A DNA stretch of 32,399 nucleotides from an uncultured archaeon (GCA_964610875.1 CAZSWP010000029.1:1-32399), one strand, 5' to 3'. Shown: positions 19,931 to 31,767, counted from the first letter of the stretch. Notes: generated by a model from the sequence alone, not told the origin. A program made the numbers and translations.

Positions 19931-21769
19931 CTAGTCCATATAGGGGTCTTCATCACTGAATGTGCCAAGGTAACCGAAATCTTCTAGGATTTCATCAATA
20001 CTCTGTGCAGATTCAGACCAGACTACTTTCCATTCGCCATCCTTCTCAAGAGTTAGATGCACGTCAGGAAGGTCTCCAAGCAGATTGTGATTCATTTCGA
20101 TAACATCTTGATAGGCACCAGTGAGACCTACTACAAAATATGACCCCTGTACATTTTTCAGATATCCCACGGGGATCCCATCACCCATCTCTTGTGTATT
20201 CATAGTGAGTGGACGATAATCTCTCGTGAACCATATCTCTCCTGCTCCTTTGCGATGAAATTGTGAGAACTCTCCATCTGAGTCACAAGTAATGTCTACT
20301 AGACGAATTGTAGTTTCTGGTCTAACATGAAGGTCTCTTATAGGAAATATTGGAAAATGTTGCTTCACAAGAACCCAATCGCCAATACTATTGAAAACAC
20401 TGAAATTACCTATTACTATATGATCCGGATACCAAAGCCTTTCGATGAGTGCATCTGGTTTTAACCCACTAGCTCCAAGACGTACTAAATGCTCGCGGAC
20501 AACTGACCTAAGTAATCCAATCACCGCTTCTCTACTATATAACGCTTCTAGATTATTTTCGATTCCACTATATTCTGTTTGGAATTCGCTCCAAAGGTCT
20601 ATTAATTCGTTGACTGATGTTGTAGCAGAAAATTTGTTTTTCCAATCATTATAAACAGTCTTTTCATCATCACTAAACTCGGAATCTTTTGGAAATACAG
20701 ATCTGACCTCCAGAGCTTTTATGACTATCAGTGAACTGAGAGCTGTGATTCCCCTTCCAGATTCTATCATAATATCTGGTACTACTTCATCTCCCGGTTT
20801 CTTATCAGTGACATCCTGAACGCCATCTACTAGTGCTTGTGCATAAAGTTCGAAGAGATTGGGTTGATGAGTACTTGTATAATCAATAGCTAAGCCTCCT
20901 CCGAAGTCAATCTTTCTGAGTTTATTCAGCCCCATCTCCTGTAACTCAAAAAATGCATGTGTCATGAATGTGGAAAATTTCCTGAAGTCCTCAATCGCTG
21001 TTATTTGTGAGCCCACATGTCCGAGAATTGTAGTCACACAATCAATGTGTCCAGTTTCTTTTAGAAGAACAATCACATCTAGAAGATCATGGATACTCAG
21101 ACCAAACTTTGAATCACGACCTGCTGAATGTGACCAATGCCCTCTGACTGTGAGGTATGGTTTTATTCTTAGCACGATGTTGGTCTTCTCAATAGGGAGG
21201 ATATCCACTATCAGTTTTGCCTCATGCAATGACTCCACAGAAACTGCGATGTTATATCCTTCTTCAATGAACATCTTAATGGTCCGTAGATATTCAGGAT
21301 CCTTTGCACCATTGCATATTATCAGTCTGTGTTTCCCATCATCAAGGACACTCTTGATGAGATGAAGTTCAGCTTTTGTTCCTGCTTCCAGTCCATATTG
21401 TTCATCCGAGAGCAGCACAGGAAGAACTGTGTCCTTTCGCTGGTTTACTTTAACAGGATATACAGCACTGAACTCGCCTTCGTAAGATGCTTCACTTATT
21501 GCCTTTGAAAAGGCATCTTTGATCTTCTTGATCTGATATGCTATGAGCTGCGGAATTCTGAGAGTGAAGGAGGACGTGTATCCAGTCTTCTTTCCGTTCT
21601 CAATGTGGATCATATTTGTGAGCTCTTCAAAGGAGAGAGTCTTTCCAAAAAACCTGATGACAAGTTTTCCTTCATCATCAATGTCTAGGAAATGCAAATC
21701 GTTCTTTCCAATTCCATAGACCAGTTTCGATTTTTCTATTGACCACTCCTCTTTACTCATCATTTCCAC
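19931..21769 (-). CDS. speA: Biosynthetic PLP-dependent arginine decarboxylase
   Basis: YPVKVNQ (PLP Lys), EAGTKAEL, CNGAKD, SKFGL, HVGSQ, DFGGGLAIDY, ESGR, DITCDSDG, GAYQD..HNL. Start may be ATG 21763 or 21760. Confidence 0.88.
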   Translation of the reverse strand: MEMMSKEEWSIEKSKLVYGIGKNDLHFLDIDDEGKLVIRFFGKTLSFEELTNMIHIENGKKTGYTSSFTLRIPQLIAYQIKKIKDAFSKAISEASYEGEFSAVYPVKVNQRKDTVLPVLLSDEQYGLEAGTKAELHLIKSVLDDGKHRLIICNGAKDPEYLRTIKMFIEEGYNIAVSVESLHEAKLIVDILPIEKTNIVLRIKPYLTVRGHWSHSAGRDSKFGLSIHDLLDVIVLLKETGHIDCVTTILGHVGSQITAIEDFRKFSTFMTHAFFELQEMGLNKLRKIDFGGGLAIDYTSTHQPNLFELYAQALVDGVQDVTDKKPGDEVVPDIMIESGRGITALSSLIVIKALEVRSVFPKDSEFSDDEKTVYNDWKNKFSATTSVNELIDLWSEFQTEYSGIENNLEALYSREAVIGLLRSVVREHLVRLGASGLKPDALIERLWYPDHIVIGNFSVFNSIGDWVLVKQHFPIFPIRDLHVRPETTIRLVDITCDSDGEFSQFHRKGAGEIWFTRDYRPLTMNTQEMGDGIPVGYLKNVQGSYFVVGLTGAYQDVIEMNHNLLGDLPDVHLTLEKDGEWKVVWSESAQSIDEILEDFGYLGTFSDEDPYMD

Positions 21770-21785
21770 AGTCCCTTAAACTACT

Positions 21786-23225
21786 TCACTGCGAGTCTTC
21801 GTCTTTGATTGTGTCTAGCATGCCTTGGAAGGCACGGGCTAGTTCTCCAATCTCATCGTCCTTGCTTGTATATTCAGCATCAACTTGCAGGTCTGTTGTA
21901 TCCATCTTCTGTTGCTTTATCATTGCTTCGGCATTACGCATTGCCAATCCCATCAAGTAAGAGAGTGGTTTAGTAATCTGATTGGATACTGCGACAGCTG
22001 CAATTCCTGCAAGTACAATTCCTCCAATGGTAATGAAGAGTATGAATGAGGTTGCTGCAACATTTGTGGTTTGGATCCTTGCTTCTAGTGCTGGTATTGC
22101 AGCTTGTGCCTCAGCTACTGGGACTACGATTATGCAGATGTAATCCCCTTTCTCAAGAGGTGTATATGCAAGAATGTAATCTTCACTATCCTTTTCGAAC
22201 TCAATTACTCCAGTTTCTCCAGATGTAATGTCCACAAGCTGTGCAGTATTTAGTTCCTCAAAATCAGCTAATGCAGGTAGATTTGGATCATAGAATGCAT
22301 AGTCAGCATCATCAACATCTTGGTGTGCAACAATTCCTGCATCGGATGTGATTAGTGCTGCATACCCAGTATCAAGAACTTGAACATCTAGGATCTTGTT
22401 TCGGATATTCTCCACGGAGATGTCTCCCGCGATGATGCCCATTGTTGTGCCATTCTCGAAGTAGACCGCCTTTCCTATTGATATTAGTAAGACATTGTCA
22501 ATCGGGTCATAGTATGGTCCAACATACACAATGTCTCCACCACCAGCACGGATGTCCTGATACCAGTCTTCATCGGTGCAACGGAACTGCTGTGTTGGTG
22601 AATTTCTGATAATATCTGTGTCGCCCACGATGCTCCCCGGATAATTAATCCACATGTCATTCTCAAAGCCTACATAGAGCCATCTGAATTCAGGCATCTG
22701 AGTATGAGTATATTGGAACATATAGTCTAGATTGGAAACACTTCCGAGTAGATCAGAATATGTATCATTATAGTCTTCCCAATTCAAAGAATTAGAACCA
22801 GGAATATACCAACTACTGTAGTTCCAAGACACCTGAATTCCATAGCGTTCATCATAGTATGTATCTTCAGGATAAAGACCTGCGACTTGATTTTCAAAGA
22901 AATAATCATAGTAGGTTTCTCTGGGTGCAAATGTCGAGTCTGAAGACATTATTAATTGACATTCTTCCGCTAGTGCTTCAACCATCCCTTCTGCATTGGA
23001 AAGCTTTTGATCGATTACTAGTGCATTCTTTTCAGCTGTCAATTCTATGTTTCGTTTGATTTGAACCTCAAGAGCGTCAGAACTCTGTTCTGTTGTGTAT
23101 CCTCCAATCAAGTCCATGAAGAACAACGAAACAAAACCTGTTGAAGCCAGCGATATCACTGATATTACAAGGAATGTCACAATCACATTTCTTCGGAAAC
23201 TGCCTTTCTTTTCTGTATACGCCAT
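21786..23225 (-). CDS. Membrane sensor: TM-dCache-TM-HAMP, no output domain
   Basis: TM1 at about aa 13-36; WLYVG..YPG, DWY, GPYYD, GIIAGDI, GYAALI; TM2; ITKPL...DDEIGELARAFQGM HAMP, then stop. Confidence 0.85.
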   Translation of the reverse strand: MAYTEKKGSFRRNVIVTFLVISVISLASTGFVSLFFMDLIGGYTTEQSSDALEVQIKRNIELTAEKNALVIDQKLSNAEGMVEALAEECQLIMSSDSTFAPRETYYDYFFENQVAGLYPEDTYYDERYGIQVSWNYSSWYIPGSNSLNWEDYNDTYSDLLGSVSNLDYMFQYTHTQMPEFRWLYVGFENDMWINYPGSIVGDTDIIRNSPTQQFRCTDEDWYQDIRAGGGDIVYVGPYYDPIDNVLLISIGKAVYFENGTTMGIIAGDISVENIRNKILDVQVLDTGYAALITSDAGIVAHQDVDDADYAFYDPNLPALADFEELNTAQLVDITSGETGVIEFEKDSEDYILAYTPLEKGDYICIIVVPVAEAQAAIPALEARIQTTNVAATSFILFITIGGIVLAGIAAVAVSNQITKPLSYLMGLAMRNAEAMIKQQKMDTTDLQVDAEYTSKDDEIGELARAFQGMLDTIKDEDSQ

Positions 23226-23237
23226 TCATATCCCTCC

Positions 23238-26081
23238 TCAATAATCGTCTGTTGTTCCTCCCATTTCCAATTGTGCCATTAGTACTCCAACTTCTTGGAA
23301 TGCCTTTTGGATATCCAACCTTACATCACGACTATCAACTACTGAGAAATACTGTCCTTCAGGGACTGAGTCACAGACTGATTCCAATAATTCTTCAAAT
23401 GTCATCCTTCTCCCAGTTTCTGGCGAATATACATTAGCTTCTATATGTGATTTCAGTTCCTCACCTACACCTATGATTATCAGATTCGTGTCGAGATGTT
23501 TGTCCCTAATGAAGCCCTCAATAGTTAGAGCTCCTCTTTTCTTTCGTCGGTCTTTCTCAGTGAAGATGCCTTCTAAAGCATCGAGTGAGAACTTGGATGA
23601 AGAGTTATCCTGACCATCCGTCAATGCAATGATCCATCTATGCTCACTTGATTCAATCAGATTGAGGTCTTCGAGAGCCTTCCCTAGTGCATCATAGAAT
23701 GCAGTGGAGTAGTTTGGATATCGAAGGGAGTTGAGTGCTTTGATAATGGGACTATCTTCAGGATCATCATAGTTTCTCTTCCGTGTCAGTGGTAGTAGCT
23801 GTTGGTAGGTGTTGTTGAATACAATAATACTCACTTGGTCCTGTGGGTTCACTTGGCTCTCAAGAATCTCCTTGGCCCCCATAACGGCAGCTTTGATACG
23901 GTCTTGAGCGCGCATACTTCCTGAGTAATCAATCACAAAGACAACACTCTTTCTAAATTGAATTGACCTTCGAAGTTTTTCTGCCTTTCTTCGTATCTCA
24001 TGACTAGGCTCATCTAAGTGGTCAAGAACATCTGCAAGTTTTTTCATTGATGAAACAACAAGCCAGTGTTCTTCAACACGCTCTCCAAGGTTTATCGCTG
24101 CTTGGTAAGCTGCTTTAGCCTTCCTCCAATTTCTATTTTCCTTAAAGAAGTCACCCAGATGATGATTTATGTAAGCGAGACCTCGCTCATACATCTCTTC
24201 ATCAGCAATTCTAAGTGCCTCTTCAAATTTGGACTGGGCTTGGCTTGTTCTTCCTTCTCTCATAAGAACAAGACCCATTGCGTCTAAGCGTTTTGCTAAG
24301 CCTCTATTATTGCCAAGACTTGTATCCACTGCTTCGGCATCTTCAAGAAGTGAGAGTGCCTTTGCATAGTTACCTTTGTCCATCTCCACGAGCGCCATGT
24401 TGTGATAGACTGATGCAATCCTTACCATTGCATCGGTTTCATCATCTCCGTCTACCTTTGCTTTTTCAAGCATCTTTTGAGCTAGATCCAATGCTTTCTC
24501 ATAATATTCCAATGCGTTTCCAACGTCTCCTCGCTGGCGGAACACATTCCCAATATTGAGGTACATGGTCTGGATACCAACTTCGATATTCAATCTTTTA
24601 CTGATTTCCAAGAGATTTTGATAGTTCTGCATTGCTCGGTTCAGGTCACCACGGATGAATGCTTGATTTCCAAATCTCACTGCTTCTTGGAAACTAAGAA
24701 GGGCATCCACAGTTGTACCAATCTCTTCATACATTGCACCCGAAGCAGAAACACTTCTCGTGAAATCCTGTTTCGCCATTTTCTCAACGAGTTGCGTCAT
24801 TTCTTTGATTGGTTCTACAACAGCTTTTCCTCTTCTATAAGATGCCGTTGCAACAACCCCTGCTACAATAAGCAAAACGGCTCCAAGAACAATGGTGAGA
24901 AATGTGGTTTGACCTGTAACTGCGGCCAAGATTTGGGCAGCAGGTTCGATGACCTCAGAATATGGAACCACCAATGCTAAAAGAAATCCTGTGTTGTCTA
25001 TAGTTTCATACGTCAAATACCAAGTTTCTCTATTCTTCGTGTAGGAACTCTGTCCAGAGCCTTCTACAAGGGCAGTCGTTAATATTGTTTCAAATTCTGC
25101 TCTTTCAGTTACACTGTTGGAGCTTCCTGCAAACTCAAGATCATAAATTGTTTGACCTTCCTCAGTCAAATCATTGTGTGCGAGAATATCACCATCATCT
25201 TCAAGCAGGAATGCGTAGCCACTTTCAAGGATTGAAATGTCTAAGACATTGTCTAGTATTGTCTTAAGCATGACATCTGCTGATACGACACCAATTAACG
25301 TTCCATTATCGAAATAGATTGGTCTCCCTAAAGAAATAAGGAGGCCAGTCGATGGGTCTTCATATGGACTTGTAATGGCAATGCTATCATCATTCATTGG
25401 TATGGTTGCAGCATTGTCATACCATTCTTCCTCTGGTGGATCGTAGTCTCCAGCTAGGTCTAAGAAGTACTCAAGATTGTCATAAGGATAGTTTTTGAAA
25501 AGGTGGGAATTGCAAACACCAGGGTCAAATCCCATGTACAACCAGATATAGTCGTTACTCATCTCATGAAGTGATCTAAAAATATTGTCCATATTACTGG
25601 ATACATCTAGAAAGTATTGTGTTGTAGAATCCAAATCGAAAGGGTCACTAGGAGTTGGATAATGATTTCTGGGCATGTAGTAGCAACTTACTTCAAATGA
25701 GATATCATTCGAACCATACCTCTCTACATACCCTATATCTGGTACAAGATATCCGGTATTAGCAAATTCTTCGTCCGGGTCCCAAAAGTATGAGTGTTGG
25801 GGCGTAGCGCTGATTCTGCCGTTGAAAAGGTCTTCAGCATATTTTTCCATCATGTAAACGCCATCAATATAATTCTGCATTCTTTCTTCTATGAATTGAG
25901 ATGTATCATTTGCAAGTCTTTGCAAGTTCTCAATCTCTTCATTCTCAAGAGCTGCTGAAGCATCAACAGCATTCTCATTTGATACATTGAATATCGTTGA
26001 TGCTGATAACGTCGAGATGACAAGTATTGGTATTAACGAAACTGATACGAATATTATGACTATCCTTTTGCTGATATCCAT
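23238..26081 (-). CDS. Membrane sensor: TM-dCache-TM-HAMP-TPR-vWA
   Basis: dCache (WLYMG, EWY, SPYED, GVVSADV, GYAFLL); HAMP (VVEPI...EEIG); TPRs (YLNIGNVFRQRGDVGNALEYYEKAL); vWA VVFVIDYSGSM...TAFYDA...IIALTDG; GGAGG SD. Confidence 0.88.
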   Translation of the reverse strand: MDISKRIVIIFVSVSLIPILVISTLSASTIFNVSNENAVDASAALENEEIENLQRLANDTSQFIEERMQNYIDGVYMMEKYAEDLFNGRISATPQHSYFWDPDEEFANTGYLVPDIGYVERYGSNDISFEVSCYYMPRNHYPTPSDPFDLDSTTQYFLDVSSNMDNIFRSLHEMSNDYIWLYMGFDPGVCNSHLFKNYPYDNLEYFLDLAGDYDPPEEEWYDNAATIPMNDDSIAITSPYEDPSTGLLISLGRPIYFDNGTLIGVVSADVMLKTILDNVLDISILESGYAFLLEDDGDILAHNDLTEEGQTIYDLEFAGSSNSVTERAEFETILTTALVEGSGQSSYTKNRETWYLTYETIDNTGFLLALVVPYSEVIEPAAQILAAVTGQTTFLTIVLGAVLLIVAGVVATASYRRGKAVVEPIKEMTQLVEKMAKQDFTRSVSASGAMYEEIGTTVDALLSFQEAVRFGNQAFIRGDLNRAMQNYQNLLEISKRLNIEVGIQTMYLNIGNVFRQRGDVGNALEYYEKALDLAQKMLEKAKVDGDDETDAMVRIASVYHNMALVEMDKGNYAKALSLLEDAEAVDTSLGNNRGLAKRLDAMGLVLMREGRTSQAQSKFEEALRIADEEMYERGLAYINHHLGDFFKENRNWRKAKAAYQAAINLGERVEEHWLVVSSMKKLADVLDHLDEPSHEIRRKAEKLRRSIQFRKSVVFVIDYSGSMRAQDRIKAAVMGAKEILESQVNPQDQVSIIVFNNTYQQLLPLTRKRNYDDPEDSPIIKALNSLRYPNYSTAFYDALGKALEDLNLIESSEHRWIIALTDGQDNSSSKFSLDALEGIFTEKDRRKKRGALTIEGFIRDKHLDTNLIIIGVGEELKSHIEANVYSPETGRRMTFEELLESVCDSVPEGQYFSVVDSRDVRLDIQKAFQEVGVLMAQLEMGGTTDDY

Positions 26082-26133
26082 TTTTGCTCCTCCATATGAA
26101 TTATGAAATCATAAATTACTTGAAATAATCCTC

Positions 26134-27579
26134 CTATCTTGTAACTGACAACAATTCTCTCCGTAATGTTTTGACAAATTCCTTGGTACTCTGTTTCTCT
26201 CTCAAAACAAATCTATTATCATGAAAATCGCCTTCAATTTGACCGTCTCCCAATAATATTATGAGAGTTTGCCTCAAGATGGAACGATGAACTCCGGTAT
26301 CTCTTTCTATAGCATCTATATCGATTGTACGTTCCTTCCTGAGTAGAGCCGTTAGTACCTTCTCAACTTCCTGTACCTCATCATGCGATGGTTTTTCTGT
26401 CCGTGGAATACGTGTCTTTGATGTCCTCACAAACATATTTCCGTCAATATGTCCATCAATCTCATTCTTCTCAATCATAGCTTGAAGACTTCTTCTAAGA
26501 TTATACGCTGCGGGCCGAGGGAGTGTTCTTCTCAGAATTCTATCTAGATCCTTGAGTTTTATCCGAGAATGTTTTCTTGTCACGGAGTCTATACTCTCTT
26601 TTATGAACTCCTCAATCTTATATTCATCAAGCACCTCGAGAGTTGCCCCACAGGACTCACATCGAGCACTCTCAGGCGAGGCTGGTGCTCCACAATTTCC
26701 ACACACTATTGCCCTGCGATATACCATCGTCTTTGTGGACTCGATTTCCTTTAGTGCTAGTTTTTCTTCACGTGTCACTTTTGTCTTTTCTCGAACCTCG
26801 AAGAATGCAAGTCTTCTATCGTCAGTTGCTATTACCATGTAAGCCATATCTGAAACATCATCTGGCATTCCAGTTGCAATAGATTTTGGTTTCCCTGTAA
26901 GCTCGACTGATTCTATCTTATTACCTTCTATGTCCCAGAAGTTTATGATTTTGGAATGATTGCCAGTGACGAATAATTTTCTTCCTCCAAAGACCAAGAT
27001 TGCAAATATTGTGATGTTCTCACCAAGCTCTAGTCTTTTTAGTTCATAACCAGCAGCGGTCACTATTGTAACTATACCTCGTCGGTCTGCTATGATGACC
27101 TCAAGTTCAGTATCATCGGTAATGTCTTCAAGCCATACATCTGCAATCGGGTTGTCAATCGTACGACTAAACAGAGCGATCCTGTCATCGTTCCAGAGAA
27201 TCACTCTCTTATTCTGTAATGCAACGACTACTTCTGCTGAATCATCTCCATCAACATCTCGCGCATCACAAGCGATTACTGAGCTTTCTAGGTTAATCTT
27301 CCAGAGAACCTTTCCCTTTTGGTCTACGATGAGTACTCTCTTTCCAACTCCTCCAACAAGAGCATCTTCTCCTTCACCCTCAACATCAGCAACTGCAATG
27401 CATCTGACTTTACTGCTCCATGGTCTTGCTGAGGTGTGATTGCCTGATGCATCATACACCCTCAAACGGTCGCCGTAATCCAACGAAAATACCTGCGCGT
27501 TTGCTGCTAGTCTTTGCCGTAGATAGAGACTATAGACATTTGCAGAAACAGGTACATTTGCGACCTCTCTCAGCCTCAA
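26134..27579 (-). CDS. Beta-propeller (FG-GAP-like) + zinc ribbon + winged-helix/PCI-like protein
   Basis: Repeats ADVEGEGED, RDVDGDDSAE, EDITDDTELE; CGNCG...CESCG; EIDGHIDG and GQIEGDF; no signal peptide; TTG start. Confidence 0.8.
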   Translation of the reverse strand: MRLREVANVPVSANVYSLYLRQRLAANAQVFSLDYGDRLRVYDASGNHTSARPWSSKVRCIAVADVEGEGEDALVGGVGKRVLIVDQKGKVLWKINLESSVIACDARDVDGDDSAEVVVALQNKRVILWNDDRIALFSRTIDNPIADVWLEDITDDTELEVIIADRRGIVTIVTAAGYELKRLELGENITIFAILVFGGRKLFVTGNHSKIINFWDIEGNKIESVELTGKPKSIATGMPDDVSDMAYMVIATDDRRLAFFEVREKTKVTREEKLALKEIESTKTMVYRRAIVCGNCGAPASPESARCESCGATLEVLDEYKIEEFIKESIDSVTRKHSRIKLKDLDRILRRTLPRPAAYNLRRSLQAMIEKNEIDGHIDGNMFVRTSKTRIPRTEKPSHDEVQEVEKVLTALLRKERTIDIDAIERDTGVHRSILRQTLIILLGDGQIEGDFHDNRFVLREKQSTKEFVKTLRRELLSVTR

Positions 27580-27653
27580 TTTATCCTAAGCACCATGAAT
27601 TTCTTTATGATATAGCCATATAAGTCTTAGATAATCTATTCTATTCGATACAC

Positions 27654-28727
27654 TTGAGAGAAGGGTGCCGAACAGGCTTCATCTGGAACCCATCGATGGA
27701 AACGTTTGATTTTGGAACACATCATCCGGTTCGTATCGGACGGTTTCAAATGATTCGTGATTTCATTGAAGCATCGGGGTTTCTGCAAGAAGACCTGGTT
27801 AGGATCATCACTCCACGAGAATTGCCTCAGGATTTACTCTATAAGACGCATTCTATCGATTATATAGAGAGAGTCCAAAAGATTTCAAAGAATGGTGAAG
27901 GTAATATTGACATTGACACCCCTGGTTTCAAAGGTATCTATGAAAACGCTCTGATAACTTCAGGAGGGACTGTGACAGGCGTTAGGTCGATCATTGAAGG
28001 TGAGATAGATCACTTCTATTCTCCAACAGGTGGATTCCATCACGCTTTTAGAAATAAAGGGGGTGGGTTCTGTATCTTTAATGATTTAGCAGCAGCTACA
28101 ATTTTTCTAAAATCTCAAGGTTTTGAACGCATTCTTATTGCTGATTTTGATGTGCACCATGGGAATGGTACTCAAAATTACTTCTATGAGGATTCTCAGG
28201 TTATGATAATCTCATTTCATGAAGACCCAGAATGGCTCTATCCTCATGATGGAGTGATTGAAGACATTGGTGATGGACTTGGGAGAGGGCTAAATGTCAA
28301 CATGCCTTTTCCGATTGATGCTGGAGATGCGGTATACCGTTTTGCCTTCAATGAACTATTTCCTCCGTTAGTTGACTACTATTCTCCTGATTTTATTCTG
28401 TTTCTTCCAGGTTTTGATGCACATTACTTGGATCCCCTCGCTCAATTGAACTTGACAACAGATGTCATTGGATATGTCATTTCTATTGTTCATTCTGCAG
28501 CACACAAGTATGCTGAGGGCCGTTTAGCTGTAATGTCAGGTGGTGGTTATCATCCTGAATCTTTCAAATGGGGGTCTGGTTTGGTCATGTCGGAACTATC
28601 AGGAATTTCCTATGTGCCACCCCCTCAGAAGCCTCCCTTTGAGGACGATGAAGAAATATGGACTGAAGTCAGAATGAATGTGGCAAGAGTGAAAGAGATA
28701 GTATTCGATGAACTGGAAATCCAATGA
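27654..28727 (+). CDS. Histone deacetylase family protein (AcuC/acetylpolyamine deacetylase-like)
   Basis: GGFHHA, GFCIFND, DFDVHHGNGTQ, GFDAH..DPL, GGGY. Confidence 0.92.
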   Translation: MREGCRTGFIWNPSMETFDFGTHHPVRIGRFQMIRDFIEASGFLQEDLVRIITPRELPQDLLYKTHSIDYIERVQKISKNGEGNIDIDTPGFKGIYENALITSGGTVTGVRSIIEGEIDHFYSPTGGFHHAFRNKGGGFCIFNDLAAATIFLKSQGFERILIADFDVHHGNGTQNYFYEDSQVMIISFHEDPEWLYPHDGVIEDIGDGLGRGLNVNMPFPIDAGDAVYRFAFNELFPPLVDYYSPDFILFLPGFDAHYLDPLAQLNLTTDVIGYVISIVHSAAHKYAEGRLAVMSGGGYHPESFKWGSGLVMSELSGISYVPPPQKPPFEDDEEIWTEVRMNVARVKEIVFDELEIQ

Positions 28728-28796
28728 TTTTTTTTCGTGCATATAGTAAGGGATTAATTACGCCCTGCAATTCTTCGTCATGGAGGAATAGAAAAG

Positions 28797-30149
28797 ATGC
28801 AGTTAGTAATTGAACTCTGTACCCCCTCTGAATGTGAACTAGAATGCATTCAGGCGTGTCGGCAAATACACGGTGATGATGCACCTTTACAATTCCCCAA
28901 GAACGAACAGTACCCTCTCATCGACAAGAATCGATGCACTAACTGTATGAGATGTCTTCGTGAATGTCCCAAAGATGCAATTAGAAAAAATGAAACCAAA
29001 ATGAAAAGTGCAAAGCAATCACAAAGGTCTCTTCCTATTAGAAGAGAAAAACCATATGAAGTTTCTAAGGATTTTGAGCGTTTCCCAGAATCAAAAATAA
29101 TATTTGCTAGGGTTCATAATGATTCAGAATTTGATAATTATGGTAAGAATGAGTGGACCGGTGCTGAAGGTATGATGAAAAAGGGTATTGATGGATATGG
29201 CGTCTTTGAACACAAACTCGCAGTATCCGGTTGGGCATTATATAGCTCTCGAAACAAGATCCATTCACCACAAATTGCCGTGAGTGAAACAACAGAATCC
29301 CGTATGAAAATTTCTTCTGATCCTAATGCACTAACTGACATGCTAAAGCAGGCTGCGAGATTTTTCGGTGCATCGCTAGTTGGTATAGCTGAGATTGACC
29401 AGCGTTGGATATACAAGATCAATAGACAAAGAGAATCTTATGATATACCGGAATCAATCCAATATGCAGTCGTTATGGCAGTAGAAATGAACTATGATGG
29501 GATTGCTACTTCCCCCGCTTGGACAAGCTCAGCCACAACAGCTTTGGGGTACTCTCAAATGGCTTTCCTCGAAATTCAACTATCTGATTTTATCAAAAAT
29601 CTTGGTTACAATGCATTGCCTTGTGGTAATGATATTGCTCTTAGTGTGCCACTTGCAATTGATGCAGGTCTTGGGCAATATGGTCGACACGGACTTTTAA
29701 TTACGAAAGAATATGGTCCTCGCATCAGACTAGCAAAAGTATTGACAGATGTTCCTTTGATTCCCGATAAACCTGACTTTGCATTTTGTAAATCTGTTAT
29801 TAGATTCTGTGAAGTGTGTGAGAAGTGTGCCCAGACATGCCCCTCACAATCTATTCCATTTGGCAAAGAAAGAAGTTGGGATGGAGAAACTAAATCCAAT
29901 AACCCTGGCATCAAGAAATGGTATATCAATCCAGAAACATGTTATAACTTTTGGATTGAGAATGGATCAGAGTGTTCCAATTGTATTCGAAGTTGCCCGT
30001 ACAACAAACCGAACAACTTTCTTCACAAGATGGTACTGTGGATTGTTCAACACATGCCGTGGATGAATAGACTCATTTTGAAAATGGACGATGTAGTAGG
30101 GTATGGGAAACAAAAAAATCCGCTAAAATACTTACAAAAATTCAGATAA
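28797..30149 (+). CDS. rdhA: Reductive dehalogenase-like cobamide/Fe-S protein with N-terminal ferredoxin domain
   Basis: KQAARFFGASLVGIA..DQRWIY; AGLGQYGRHGLLITKEYGPRIRL; FCEVCEKCAQTCP; CYNFW...CSNCIRSCP; N-terminal CTPSECELECIQAC and CTNCMRCLRECP. Confidence 0.85.
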   Translation: MQLVIELCTPSECELECIQACRQIHGDDAPLQFPKNEQYPLIDKNRCTNCMRCLRECPKDAIRKNETKMKSAKQSQRSLPIRREKPYEVSKDFERFPESKIIFARVHNDSEFDNYGKNEWTGAEGMMKKGIDGYGVFEHKLAVSGWALYSSRNKIHSPQIAVSETTESRMKISSDPNALTDMLKQAARFFGASLVGIAEIDQRWIYKINRQRESYDIPESIQYAVVMAVEMNYDGIATSPAWTSSATTALGYSQMAFLEIQLSDFIKNLGYNALPCGNDIALSVPLAIDAGLGQYGRHGLLITKEYGPRIRLAKVLTDVPLIPDKPDFAFCKSVIRFCEVCEKCAQTCPSQSIPFGKERSWDGETKSNNPGIKKWYINPETCYNFWIENGSECSNCIRSCPYNKPNNFLHKMVLWIVQHMPWMNRLILKMDDVVGYGKQKNPLKYLQKFR

Positions 30150-30309
30150 AAATCGCCGTAATCATTTTAGGGGAGTTTGTTGTATGAGAACATTGACAGA
30201 GCTTATTGACTCGAGCTATCTGGTTAGGATGAAGGGAATTGGAGTATCATTATACTACAATCAGCCTGTGTTCAAAGAGTAGCTCCAATGAATAGGAGTA
30301 AGGCCTATC

Positions 30310-31767
30310 ATGAGTAAAGATGATCCTACTGTGAAATTTCCCAAGGAAAATAATAGTGGAGATTATCTACTAGGTTTGGTTCATCTGAATGAAGATTTCC
30401 TTCAGGAAATCATTGTAGGATCTCACGAGGGTATTGTGATTATTGGTGATGATTATAAATTTGAGTACATTAGCCCAAATGCACACGATATATTTGGTGG
30501 CACTTCTGATGATTTGTTAGGGAAGGATTTCCGACAATATCTAAGGAAAGAAACTGCAGACGACCTTGCTAAACGCTACAGGAGTAGAAGAAAGGGAAAG
30601 TATGAACCCGTTAGTTATCCTCTTGAGATTACCCGCAAAGATGGAGAAAAGAGGATAGTAAAAATCAGAGCATCTGTATTGACGAATGGACTTGGCAAGA
30701 CAAAGACTGTTCTTCATATTTTGGATATTACAAAACAAGAAGAAAACGCACGAGCTCTAAAAGATAGTGAAAGACGGTATCGAACACTTGTAGAAACAAT
30801 GAATGATGGGCTTGTAATAGACGATGAAAATGGTATCATAATCTATGCCAATGATGCATTCTGTAATCTCTTAGGTTATGAAATAAATGAATTAATCGGG
30901 AAACACTCTACCAATTTCATTAAGGACATTGATCCAGAATTCATGGATTCAAAGATTGCAAGAAGAAGAGAAGGGGAGTCTGAAAGATATGAGCTTGACT
31001 GGATACACAAAAGTGGCAGAATCATCCCAACCCTTCTCTCAGCTAATCCTTTCTTCAATGCAAAGGGCGAATTCACTGGAACATTTGCTGTAGTCACTGA
31101 AATTAGTGAACAGAAAGAAGCTGAAGAAGCTGTACAACTCTATCTTGATTTACTTACTCATGATATTGCCAATCAATTACAAGTTATTGTGACATCATCT
31201 AGTTTGCTTGATGAAACACTCCCTTCTAGTTATTTGGGAGATGCAAAGCAAGATATTATGGATGCAGTGGAGCGTTGCAACCGACTTATTACAAAGGTCA
31301 AACGTGCTGCTCAATTGAGGACTCTACCAATATCTGAAGTGGAAATCACAGAAATAGTAGAGGAAAAAGCCAAAGTAGTAGAACGTATTCACTCAGCAAA
31401 TGTGAAGATGAAGGGGTTTTCAAAAGAGGTCTATGTCTATGCAGATACCCTTTTCGGAGAGCTAGTCTGGAACTTACTTGAGAATGCTGCAAGACACAAC
31501 CCCAAACCTGACAAGAAGATTTGGATTACAATGAAGATGAATAAGAAATCAGTTGTTTTGACAGTAGCTGATAATGGTCCTGGGATAAGTGATGCTCGTA
31601 AGCAAGCCCTCTTTGAAACAGGAAAGCGAGCTGGTGGCGTAGGCTTGACACTAGTATCACAAATGACCCGAAAATACAATGGCACTATTAGAGTAGAGGA
31701 CAGAGTGCCTGGCAAGTCCTCTGAAGGTGCAAAGTTCATTCTAAAACTAAAAAGAGTGCAAACCTAG
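30310..31767 (+). CDS. Cytoplasmic PAS-PAS sensor histidine kinase
   Basis: Two PAS/PAC domains; H-box LTHDIANQL; N-box NLLENAARH; DNGPGI; GVGL; no TM segment. Confidence 0.92.
   Translation: MSKDDPTVKFPKENNSGDYLLGLVHLNEDFLQEIIVGSHEGIVIIGDDYKFEYISPNAHDIFGGTSDDLLGKDFRQYLRKETADDLAKRYRSRRKGKYEPVSYPLEITRKDGEKRIVKIRASVLTNGLGKTKTVLHILDITKQEENARALKDSERRYRTLVETMNDGLVIDDENGIIIYANDAFCNLLGYEINELIGKHSTNFIKDIDPEFMDSKIARRREGESERYELDWIHKSGRIIPTLLSANPFFNAKGEFTGTFAVVTEISEQKEAEEAVQLYLDLLTHDIANQLQVIVTSSSLLDETLPSSYLGDAKQDIMDAVERCNRLITKVKRAAQLRTLPISEVEITEIVEEKAKVVERIHSANVKMKGFSKEVYVYADTLFGELVWNLLENAARHNPKPDKKIWITMKMNKKSVVLTVADNGPGISDARKQALFETGKRAGGVGLTLVSQMTRKYNGTIRVEDRVPGKSSEGAKFILKLKRVQT

Follow-up and report, generated by a model that had tools for sequence, protein, structure and literature searches.

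Genes of the locus and architecture of the encoded proteins

A stretch of 32,399 nucleotides (nt) from an uncultured archaeon of the Thorarchaeota, an Asgard lineage (GCA_964610875.1 CAZSWP010000029.1:1-32399; the whole stretch is called the window here), contains four tightly packed genes on the minus strand. In reading order they encode a soluble propeller–zinc ribbon–two winged helix protein of 481 residues with a TTG start (PROP, 26134-27579), a receptor of 947 residues with the architecture transmembrane helix (TM)-dCache-TM-HAMP-TPR-vWA (CTV, 23238-26081), a TM-dCache-TM-HAMP protein of 479 residues with an acidic tail straight after the HAMP domain (CH, 21786-23225), and a SpeA-type arginine decarboxylase dependent on pyridoxal phosphate (PLP), of 612 residues (19931-21769). 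The gaps measure 52 nt between PROP and CTV, 12 nt between CTV and CH, and 16 nt between CH and speA, and GGAGG-type ribosome sites lie 6-8 nt ahead of the CTV and CH start codons. An earlier reading of the DNA alone, referred to below as the original prediction, had described the first three genes as a kinase-free transmembrane signalling module. These co-oriented open reading frames lie exactly where it had put them; it had missed the altered ligand pocket and the fourth partner, speA, which is the most widely conserved one. The unit consists of four genes, speA included, and not of three.

A TATA-like promoter element, CTTATATGG (27616-27624, minus strand), is located about 40 nt upstream of the PROP start and was kept at 17 of 18 orthologous loci when these were aligned by eye; a GGTGC element resembling a ribosome site, about 10 nt before the start, is likewise conserved. 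Searching the PROP promoter region for an operator, we saw no conserved palindrome, only the TATA-like box and the ribosome-site-like element.

For CTV, Pfam matches were obtained to dCache_1 (PF02743; 69.7 bits, cut-off 45), to several TPR families and to VWA_2 (53.7 bits), and the hydropathy scan placed transmembrane helices at residues 7-25 and 393-411, flanking the extracellular dCache_1 domain (about residues 30-390; 24912-25994, on the minus strand like all protein features given below for PROP, CTV and CH). The HAMP-like segment that follows (residues 416-470; 24672-24836) was not called by Pfam and was recognized by column-for-column alignment with the HAMP domain encoded at locus L045 (37.5 bits); P424 and E453 (EEIG motif) are invariant in it. 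In the structural model the segment forms two helices, the second of which runs unbroken into the TPR array (residues 471-688; 24018-24671; TPR_12 79 bits and other TPR families), and the closest folds of this array found by Foldseek were the peptide-binding TPR scaffolds LGN/Pins and kinesin light chain. A linker of a loop and a helix (residues 687-707; 23961-24023), the predicted docking site for PROP, leads to a cytoplasmic vWA domain (23262-23951) with a complete metal ion-dependent adhesion site (MIDAS; DYSGS, T793, D822). The MIDAS residues D718-Y-S720-G-S722, T793 and D822 are invariant in 27 CTV orthologues and also across Asgard families, including the sensor-less forms described below. 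Among the closest folds of the vWA domain were BatB (3ibs, the best match), the vWA domain of CMG2/ANTXR2, and ITIH1.

CTV ends in an acidic tail (23241-23273) with the motif QLE.GG.T.DY in f1 and E.EG...[DE] elsewhere (f1, f5, f9, f12, f14, f22, and f27 are labels of Asgard families, f1 being the family of this genome). A ubiquitin-like reading of its Gly-Gly was rejected, as outside f1 the motif is Glu-Gly in an acidic tail after the last vWA helix. Self-ligation of the MIDAS by the tail was also considered; the tail is disordered in the monomer model, which speaks neither for nor against it.

The cytoplasmic TPR-vWA arm contains no enzyme domain. In CTV and CH, no Pfam or NCBIfam match to HisKA/HATPase, MCPsignal, GGDEF/EAL, cyclase, or PP2C domains was detected after the HAMP, and no DNA-binding domain was found in either protein. 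The AlphaFold2 (AF2) model of CTV residues 416-947 (predicted local distance difference test, pLDDT, 82) consists of HAMP helices, TPR repeats, linker helix, and vWA domain only, and a fold search with these residues returned TPR and vWA matches and no enzyme fold. Histidine-kinase models matched weakly on TM2-HAMP and the first TPR stretch of CTV (FimS, 47.8 bits against a cut-off of 600). The proposal that the output is made up of protein-interaction modules only thus held when a hidden catalytic domain was looked for by domain and by fold.

CH is a paralogue of CTV (about 28% identity over residues 5-415, E 1.6e-34). It exceeds the Pfam cut-offs for dCache_1 (61.3 bits, cut-off 45) and HAMP (PF00672; 26.3 bits, cut-off 25), the HAMP match being located at 21804-21989 and scoring 30.2 bits in a search of the genome. 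Transmembrane helices at residues 14-32 and 395-413, detected by hydropathy, flank its Cache domain, and the protein ends 5-8 residues after the HAMP. The architectures first read for the two receptors are therefore the ones we find, with the HAMP of CTV resting on alignment and not on Pfam. According to a profile search of this genome CTV and CH are its only dCache_1 proteins; it has a single Pfam HAMP match, and no MCPsignal domain, the signalling domain of methyl-accepting chemotaxis proteins (MCPs), was found in it.

The PROP protein showed no transmembrane helix in the hydropathy scan, and no signal segment. Pfam gave propeller matches over residues 55-269, a zinc ribbon at 293-314, and weak DUF977 and PCI winged-helix matches. 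In the AF2 model (pLDDT 83) a beta-propeller of 24 strands (residues 1-265; 26785-27579), which carries the predicted docking face for CTV, is followed by a helix, a zinc ribbon (residues 290-314; 26638-26712; Zn_Ribbon_1 and DZR matches below the Pfam cut-off) and tandem winged helices (residues 320-385 and 399-459; 26203-26622), in which the topology H-S-H-H-S-S is seen twice. The four Cys of the zinc ribbon are invariant in 21 sequences, and so is the basic helix of the tail with the motif YNLRR..Q. Propeller, ribbon and winged helices had all been anticipated in the original prediction; its FG-GAP label scores below the cut-off in PROP itself and passes only in relatives, such as P0127, which exceeds the Pfam cut-offs for FG-GAP_3 and BBS2_Mid, and its PCI-like label corresponds to a weak match (PF01399; 15.2 bits, cut-off 22) and is reached only by a distant relative, P0130 (23.2 bits).

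On BBSome/ITFG2-type models PROP (P0001) scored 16.8 bits against a cut-off of 27, P0127 31.4 bits, and the partner encoded at L043 33.4 bits. The top VIA match of the propeller was an NHL domain (Z 22.9, root-mean-square deviation 2.5, 235 aligned residues, with many ties), and Foldseek returned BBS9, ITFG2/KICSTOR, BBS2, and BBS1 amid generic WD40 and NHL domains. As modelled, the fold of the propeller is generic, and its match to BBS-type propellers is no better than to generic ones. A profile search of the zinc ribbon and winged-helix tail against PDB sequences gave nothing below E 0.08 and no significant relative. Orthologues of PROP are 54-67% identical in most family genomes and 37-38% in two genera. 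The propeller is common to a wider set of proteins of 320-620 residues; the full architecture was found in only two others among 1.84 billion cluster representatives. PROP starts with TTG here and with TTG, GTG, or ATG at the same aligned position in orthologues, several of which are over-extended by 20-80 codons by gene callers that pick the first start in the open frame. An open frame of about 2250 residues with FG-GAP-like propeller repeats, weakly matching the propeller of PROP, was seen once in nearly every family genome (for example G022:C45:10365-10925 and G012:C107:61078-61536).

The complex of PROP with CTV residues 470-947 and Mg was modelled with custom alignments, and this was the only pair modelled. 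Two runs (1 and 3) gave an ipSAE of 0.71 and the remaining one (run 2) 0.00, which was also the score of the best of three controls; in the calibration of the tool, which holds only roughly here, 58 of 80 solved complexes and 2 of 110 mismatched pairs attained the ipSAE mark. The partners had a pLDDT of at least 79, and agreement between the runs was at least 0% of contacts. Two of the three runs therefore predicted a contact of the propeller with the TPR-vWA arm, as the original prediction had envisaged. On the PROP side the modelled contact comprises one face (residues 13-16, 35-36, 56-59, 100-102, 122, 143-144, 166, 190, and 208), and on the CTV side residues 687-705, that is, the loop and helix joining TPR and vWA and not the MIDAS. 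In this linker H694, R697, and E701 are invariant, and D687, S693, and R705 are each shared by 26 of 27 sequences; in PROP, Y16, Y35, and R59 are invariant, S56 is found in 20 of 21 sequences, and an invariant D34 adjoins the contact. The interface residues of both proteins hold even in orthologues of 37-45% identity. PROP is thus predicted to dock on the invariant TPR-vWA linker helix. CTV carries a His at the position of H694 in f1, f22, and f9, but not in f27, f5, f14, or f12, a pattern in which the linker His appears to track an adjacent PROP-like gene; the correlation is only suggestive, because the families are few and related.

Conservation of the module and its linkage to speA

Asgard archaea were surveyed in 200 genomes of the phylum, and synteny within the family was analysed in 18 fetched loci with a PROP orthologue. 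PROP is followed directly by CTV in 18 of 18 loci, and CH and SpeA come next in the same order in 14, the other four lying at a contig edge. The order found in the window is thus kept in all 18 family genomes with a PROP orthologue, and it is also seen at L029 and L030, the loci of the two genera that diverge most, with outer flanks that are different. PROP and CTV are jointly missing from five family genomes.

Beyond f1, CTV and CH are adjacent in at least seven Asgard families in all. A PROP-like propeller gene adjoins the pair in three of them (upstream in f1, convergent in f22, downstream in f9). None was found in one genome each of f27, f5, and f14 using profiles A1 and A4, nor in one f12 genome (G130), for which only the full-length profile A1 was used; this excludes PROP as the universal output of the pair. 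In f9 a PROP-like gene also adjoins a sensor-less module (L045:4760-9698 and L046:6747-11734), in which a TM-HAMP-TPR-vWA protein of 575 residues is followed by a TM-TM-HAMP protein of 154 residues, homologous to CH 375-476, and by a propeller protein of 610 residues with a C-terminal zinc ribbon; the fourth gene of this version encodes a multi-TM protein of 244-251 residues that belongs to no known family. Even in the absence of Cache domains, then, a long subunit, a HAMP-only subunit, and a propeller protein are found together.

The partners in other families have features of their own. The PROP-like proteins of f9 (L042:13838-15706, L043:4268-5854, L045:7866-9698) carry a conserved region of about 250 residues between the propeller and a final zinc ribbon, with the motif RGGQIEG and no Pfam match, apparently rich in beta strands as judged by sequence pattern alone. 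The f22 protein (L032:7314-8624) ends in a winged-helix-like stretch and four CxxC pairs. Genes for small Cys/His-rich RING-like proteins adjoin the pair in f14 and immediately follow speA in f5 (L038:12958-13305, L039:2441-2716, L037:15973-16791). In every family the module comes with a zinc finger of one sort or another.

The gene following CH was tentatively assigned to the arginine decarboxylases by its best PDB matches (3NZP, 3N2O, and 3NZQ), all of which are biosynthetic enzymes of this type and align over residues 23-600; the NCBIfam scores were below the cut-offs (NF003763, 355.4 bits against 369; TIGR01273, 333 against 624). A pyruvoyl-type arginine decarboxylase was looked for in this genome (G000), which is 95% complete, and in five relatives, but none turned up, and SpeA is the sole arginine decarboxylase detected in the genome. 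Archaea need agmatine for the decoding by tRNA-Ile and for polyamines. The SpeA homologues beside the module end in acidic D-P-Y-[MFV] in f1, f27, f14, and f12 (19931-19975 in the window), a motif that was considered as a docking peptide but may be common to SpeA enzymes in general, and in f27 a second PLP decarboxylase of the ornithine/diaminopimelate/arginine family directly follows speA (L036:15585-17027, L044:5156-5446).

The speA gene lies beside CTV-CH in six Asgard families and in three arrangements: downstream and co-oriented in f1 (14 of 18 loci, the remaining four stopping at the contig end), f27, and f14, divergent upstream in f22 and f5, and 6 kb away in f12. That the link has survived rearrangement argues more strongly than anything else for a joint action of the receptors and SpeA. 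The enzyme is also found without the receptors. In G001 the deletion of some 4 kb has joined PROP residues 1-68 to CH 359-479 and eliminated CTV entirely (L079:5979-6539), sparing speA, LarE, and both flanks; its sister species G016 has a complete operon. In G004 and G011 a SpeA homologue is kept and the module is absent, the G004 copy lying immediately next to the HDAC-like gene. No pyruvoyl-type enzyme turned up in these genomes either. SpeA can thus do without the module, which, being dispensable while speA stays, behaves as an accessory regulatory layer on speA and not as a part of the enzyme.

Around the four genes, a LarE gene lies downstream of SpeA, and an HDAC-family gene is divergent from PROP. 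Upstream, on the other strand (27654-31767), the window encodes the HDAC-family deacetylase, a protein of 450 residues with two 4Fe-4S dicluster regions (Fer4), and a PAS-PAS-HATPase protein in which a HisKA domain was not detected. Among PROP, CTV, CH, SpeA, LarE, HDAC-like, and Fer4 genes, that is, the unit and its flanks, there is no AAA+ gene. The deacetylase gene adjoins PROP in 15 of the 18 family loci, and the Fer4 and PAS-HATPase genes occur in 9 and 11 at variable spacing. A role of the HDAC-like gene as a polyamine deacetylase was considered and set aside: its best matches were HDAC6, HDAH, and acetoin-utilisation proteins, which provides no polyamine-specific evidence, and the gene is not beside the module in L024, L029, L030, or other families.

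Ligand pockets and relatives in giant viruses and Tetrahymena

The pocket of the CTV Cache domain is formed by Y213, E218, W220, Y221, Y240, D242, and D269. In the alignment with the chemoreceptor PctA, residues Y121, W128, Y129, Y144, and D173 are kept in CTV as Y213, W220, Y221, Y240, and D269, and all of 27 sequences share Y213, W220, Y221, D242, and D269. Where dCache_1AA sensors (motif of Gumerov 2022, PctA numbering) have Arg126, which holds the carboxylate of amino-acid ligands (PMC10589655), CTV has Glu218, conserved in at least 90% of the sequences. CH has Glu at this position here, and Glu or Asp in 15 of 16 CH sequences. Both CTV and CH thus depart from the dCache_1AA motif at Arg126 and keep its other five positions.

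TlpQ and McpU hold histamine, putrescine, and agmatine by their primary amine, through the same Tyr/Asp/Asp triad in an acidic pocket and with nM-µM affinity (PMC6234866). The best PDB profile matches of CH were 3LIB and 3LI8, both Cache domains from Methanosarcina, the former being an archaeal amine-binding (AM-type) domain (PMC10589655). Amine sensors of the dCache_1AM class carry the full AM_motif and, upstream, an insertion that holds an Arg-Asp pair (R103/D133 of PctD; PMC10589655); our comparison with them covered the aromatic pair and the final Asp, which are present. As the residues for the amino group are kept and the carboxylate-binding Arg is replaced by Glu or Asp, and given the link to speA, the ligand of the Cache domains is probably a cationic amine such as agmatine, putrescine, or a polyamine, rather than an amino acid. 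The triad is retained by CH in every family examined and the pocket of CTV is degenerate in f9 and f14, which suggests a division of labour in which CH senses and CTV transduces.

A similar pair was found outside the Asgard archaea. Three contigs of giant-virus metagenome-assembled genomes encode a dCache-TPR-vWA protein of 883-964 residues beside a Cache paralogue of 500-567 residues. A 569-kb giant-virus contig that also encodes a poxvirus-type core protein P4B, an RFC-like protein, XRN, ubiquitin, and a protein kinase carries a relative divergent from a Cache paralogue of 515 residues. Neither a PROP-like gene nor speA was found in the giant-virus loci examined. In the viral pairs (L051:5106-9473, L049:949-5224, L077:7994-12619) the long subunits retain the canonical Arg and the full amino-acid motif, DPRCR.WY, with two Cys, and the short subunits have Asp or Glu at the Arg site, so that the two pockets of one viral pair appear to differ in specificity. 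In protein searches the only named eukaryote protein found was one of 1034 residues from Tetrahymena thermophila, with a Cache/PDC module and TPR, of which 771 columns aligned to the viral clade with an hhalign probability of 98%.

Proposed mode of action and comparison with known systems

On balance we lean towards the view that the four-gene unit serves the kinase-free sensing of an external amine. Most likely, CH and CTV would form one hetero-oligomeric receptor, with CH as the constant ligand-binding subunit and CTV as the transducing one. The outward-facing Cache pockets would bind a cationic amine, our guess being agmatine, putrescine, or a related polyamine, and the signal would pass via TM2 and HAMP into the rigidly attached, non-enzymatic, protein-binding TPR-vWA arm, where movement of the HAMP would alter what the arm holds. 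In Thorarchaeota the flat face of the PROP propeller is predicted to dock on the invariant TPR-vWA helix, which would leave the MIDAS of the vWA domain and the TPR groove free for further clients. The purpose would most likely be to match the synthesis of agmatine and polyamines by the co-transcribed SpeA to the external supply of amines.

As to the output, it is conceivable, at rather less than even confidence, that the arm grips and releases SpeA or a regulator of SpeA through the MIDAS or the TPR groove; this would also work in families without PROP, and vWA adaptors that hold on to enzymes are known in MoxR systems. A more doubtful alternative is that the arm holds and releases PROP, whose zinc ribbon and basic winged-helix tail would then act on nucleic acid or another target. 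We regard as speculative and unlikely a broader reading, in which the pair would be an ancient two-subunit, enzyme-free receptor class that predates eukaryotes and recruits a BBS/ITFG2-like propeller adaptor by its TPR-vWA arm; such a forerunner of eukaryote-style receptor-adaptor signalling would still exist in ciliates, would have been captured by giant viruses, and in Asgard archaea would feed back on agmatine and polyamine synthesis.

Several points weigh against an amine sensor acting on SpeA as proposed here. Ligand, heteromer, and output are all inferred. An acidic residue at the Arg site is compatible with many cationic ligands, and the comparison with dCache_1AM sensors covered only part of their features. 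Close kin share gene order by descent, therefore the counts within f1 overstate independence and the argument rests on the rearranged families. The speA gene is not beside the pair in f9 or in the giant viruses, and it persists in G001, which has deleted the module, and in G004 and G011, which lack it. Not every family with the pair has the propeller partner, the tail of PROP has no detectable relative of known function, and one of the three runs of the complex scored 0.00.

Some of these observations would fit a receptor pair unrelated to amines and SpeA, which senses another cation, a peptide, or a surface cue, with speA being only co-expressed or adjacent by descent. In f9 and in giant viruses speA does not adjoin the pair, the module has been lost while speA stayed, the pocket of CTV is degenerate in f9 and f14, and the assignment of the ligand relies on one substituted residue and analogy. 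We consider this explanation improbable, as descent alone is inadequate to account for the adjacency of speA in six families and three arrangements, the triad of CH is kept everywhere together with an acidic residue where amino-acid sensors have Arg, and it is the CTV-like copies of giant viruses, which lack speA, that retain the Arg. The propeller raises another possibility, namely that the module is a membrane-anchored scaffold for assembly or trafficking, either integrin-like or comparable to a coat or BBSome adaptor, in which the Cache domains serve as anchor or adhesion part. Members of the propeller family repeatedly matched BBS2_Mid, BBS7, ITFG2, and PTHB1, above cut-off in P0127 and the L043 protein; BBS9, ITFG2, BBS2, and BBS1 were among the top Foldseek matches; TPR and vWA are scaffolding modules; and a cluster labelled BBS7/ITFG2 is mentioned for Asgard archaea in a catalogue of eukaryotic signature proteins (bioRxiv 10.64898/2026.10.28.762692). 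However, the propeller is equally like generic NHL and WD40 domains, PROP is without the GAE, platform, and helical domains found behind BBS propellers, the contact is predicted on the linker helix and not on the MIDAS, and no PROP was found in the genomes searched of several families that keep the pair. As HAMP and ligand-competent Cache pockets, which are signalling parts, are conserved as well, we judge a pure scaffold to be quite improbable.

The unit might also not be kinase-free at all, if the arm recruited a soluble kinase encoded elsewhere, such as the PAS-HATPase protein two genes upstream, and thus fed an ordinary phosphorelay. The gene for this PAS-PAS-HATPase protein (30310-31767) is near the operon here and, at varying distance, in 11 of 18 family loci. 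It lies, however, on the other strand with two genes between, up to several kb away, it is missing at L029, L030, and the loci of other families, and it stays where the module is deleted; moreover, the unit contains no response regulator. Recruitment of a kinase therefore appears very unlikely to us, and we return to the amine-sensing unit in comparing it with systems already described.

In its extracellular part the module resembles the chemoreceptors PctA/B/C, McpU, and TlpQ, with which it shares the order TM-double Cache-TM-HAMP, the aromatic residues of the membrane-distal pocket, and the Tyr/Asp/Asp triad (PMC6234866, PMC10589655). In contrast to PctA, McpU, and TlpQ, there is no MCP signalling domain and there are no Che genes; one subunit carries TPR-vWA and the other nothing. 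It also differs from the PctA-type receptors in that the carboxylate-binding Arg is replaced by Glu or Asp, and in that two genes form an obligate pair. Another membrane protein that ends at its HAMP without a cytoplasmic output, like CH and the 154-residue form, is the prototype HAMP protein Af1503 of Archaeoglobus fulgidus (PMC3585426), with which the comparison was made at the level of the HAMP type; unlike Af1503, for which no partner is stated, CH always stands beside an output-bearing paralogue.

For the cytoplasmic arm the closest parallels are vWA-TPR proteins such as BatA and BatB of the Bacteroides aerotolerance operon, which likewise have a cytoplasmic MIDAS vWA domain and TPR on a membrane anchor. 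Here the order is reversed, with the TPR before the vWA domain, and Cache and HAMP are added; in addition, the unit has no gene for a MoxR-type AAA+ ATPase or a DUF58 protein, in which it differs from BatA/BatB and from the MoxR-associated adaptors CbbO, NorD, and ViaA. MoxR-associated vWA adaptors grip client enzymes through the MIDAS. A combination of Cache and MIDAS vWA is also found in the alpha2delta subunits of calcium channels and in CACHD1, to which the Cache domains gave sequence matches (8s7c, E 9.6e-9; alpha2delta-1, E 1e-7). Both domains are extracellular in these proteins and the vWA domain is inserted between Cache modules, whereas the vWA domain described here is cytoplasmic and placed after HAMP and TPR. 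The propellers of the BBSome (BBS1/2/7/9) and of KICSTOR (ITFG2) are similar to PROP in weak to moderate profile and fold matches and as cytoplasmic propellers near TPR and a membrane receptor; where these have GAE, platform, and helical domains, PROP has a zinc ribbon and winged helices, and there is no small GTPase in the unit. In the head of integrin alpha/beta an extracellular FG-GAP propeller sits on a MIDAS I-like domain, while here both parts are cytoplasmic and the predicted contact is off the MIDAS.

A functional parallel may be seen in CadC of E. coli, which together with LysP is a kinase-free membrane sensor for the lysine decarboxylase operon cadBA and receives feedback from the periplasmic amine product. 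As in the unit described here, a membrane sensor without a kinase is tied to an amino-acid decarboxylase; CadC differs in carrying its own DNA-binding domain and another sensor fold, neither of which is present here, where the coupling to speA is the part that we propose. Kinase-free scaffolding or sequestration is also known in prokaryotes from MCPs, ToxR/CadC-type receptors, anti-sigma factors, and Mlc-PtsG. With these precedents the signalling logic, which the original prediction did not recognise as described in prokaryotes, is not unprecedented, though the architecture is: literature searches returned no description of a Cache-HAMP-TPR-vWA architecture, of a HAMP-only partner, or of a link to speA.

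The module is a transmembrane receptor of the Cache-HAMP type with a new output and a new subunit design. The known Cache-HAMP receptors, a type of protein that provides prokaryotes with their most frequent extracellular sensors, pass the signal to a kinase, an MCP array, a cyclase, or a phosphatase, and a sensor that ends in a docking arm and is paired with an output-less twin implies a different mode of transmembrane signalling. The pair is the only set of Cache sensors in this Asgard genome and is tied to an enzyme that makes agmatine. It is shared with giant viruses, and Tetrahymena encodes a Cache-TPR relative of the long subunit. A study of the module would assign a function to HAMP-only proteins of the Af1503 type and to an Asgard propeller family that is listed among the eukaryotic signature proteins.

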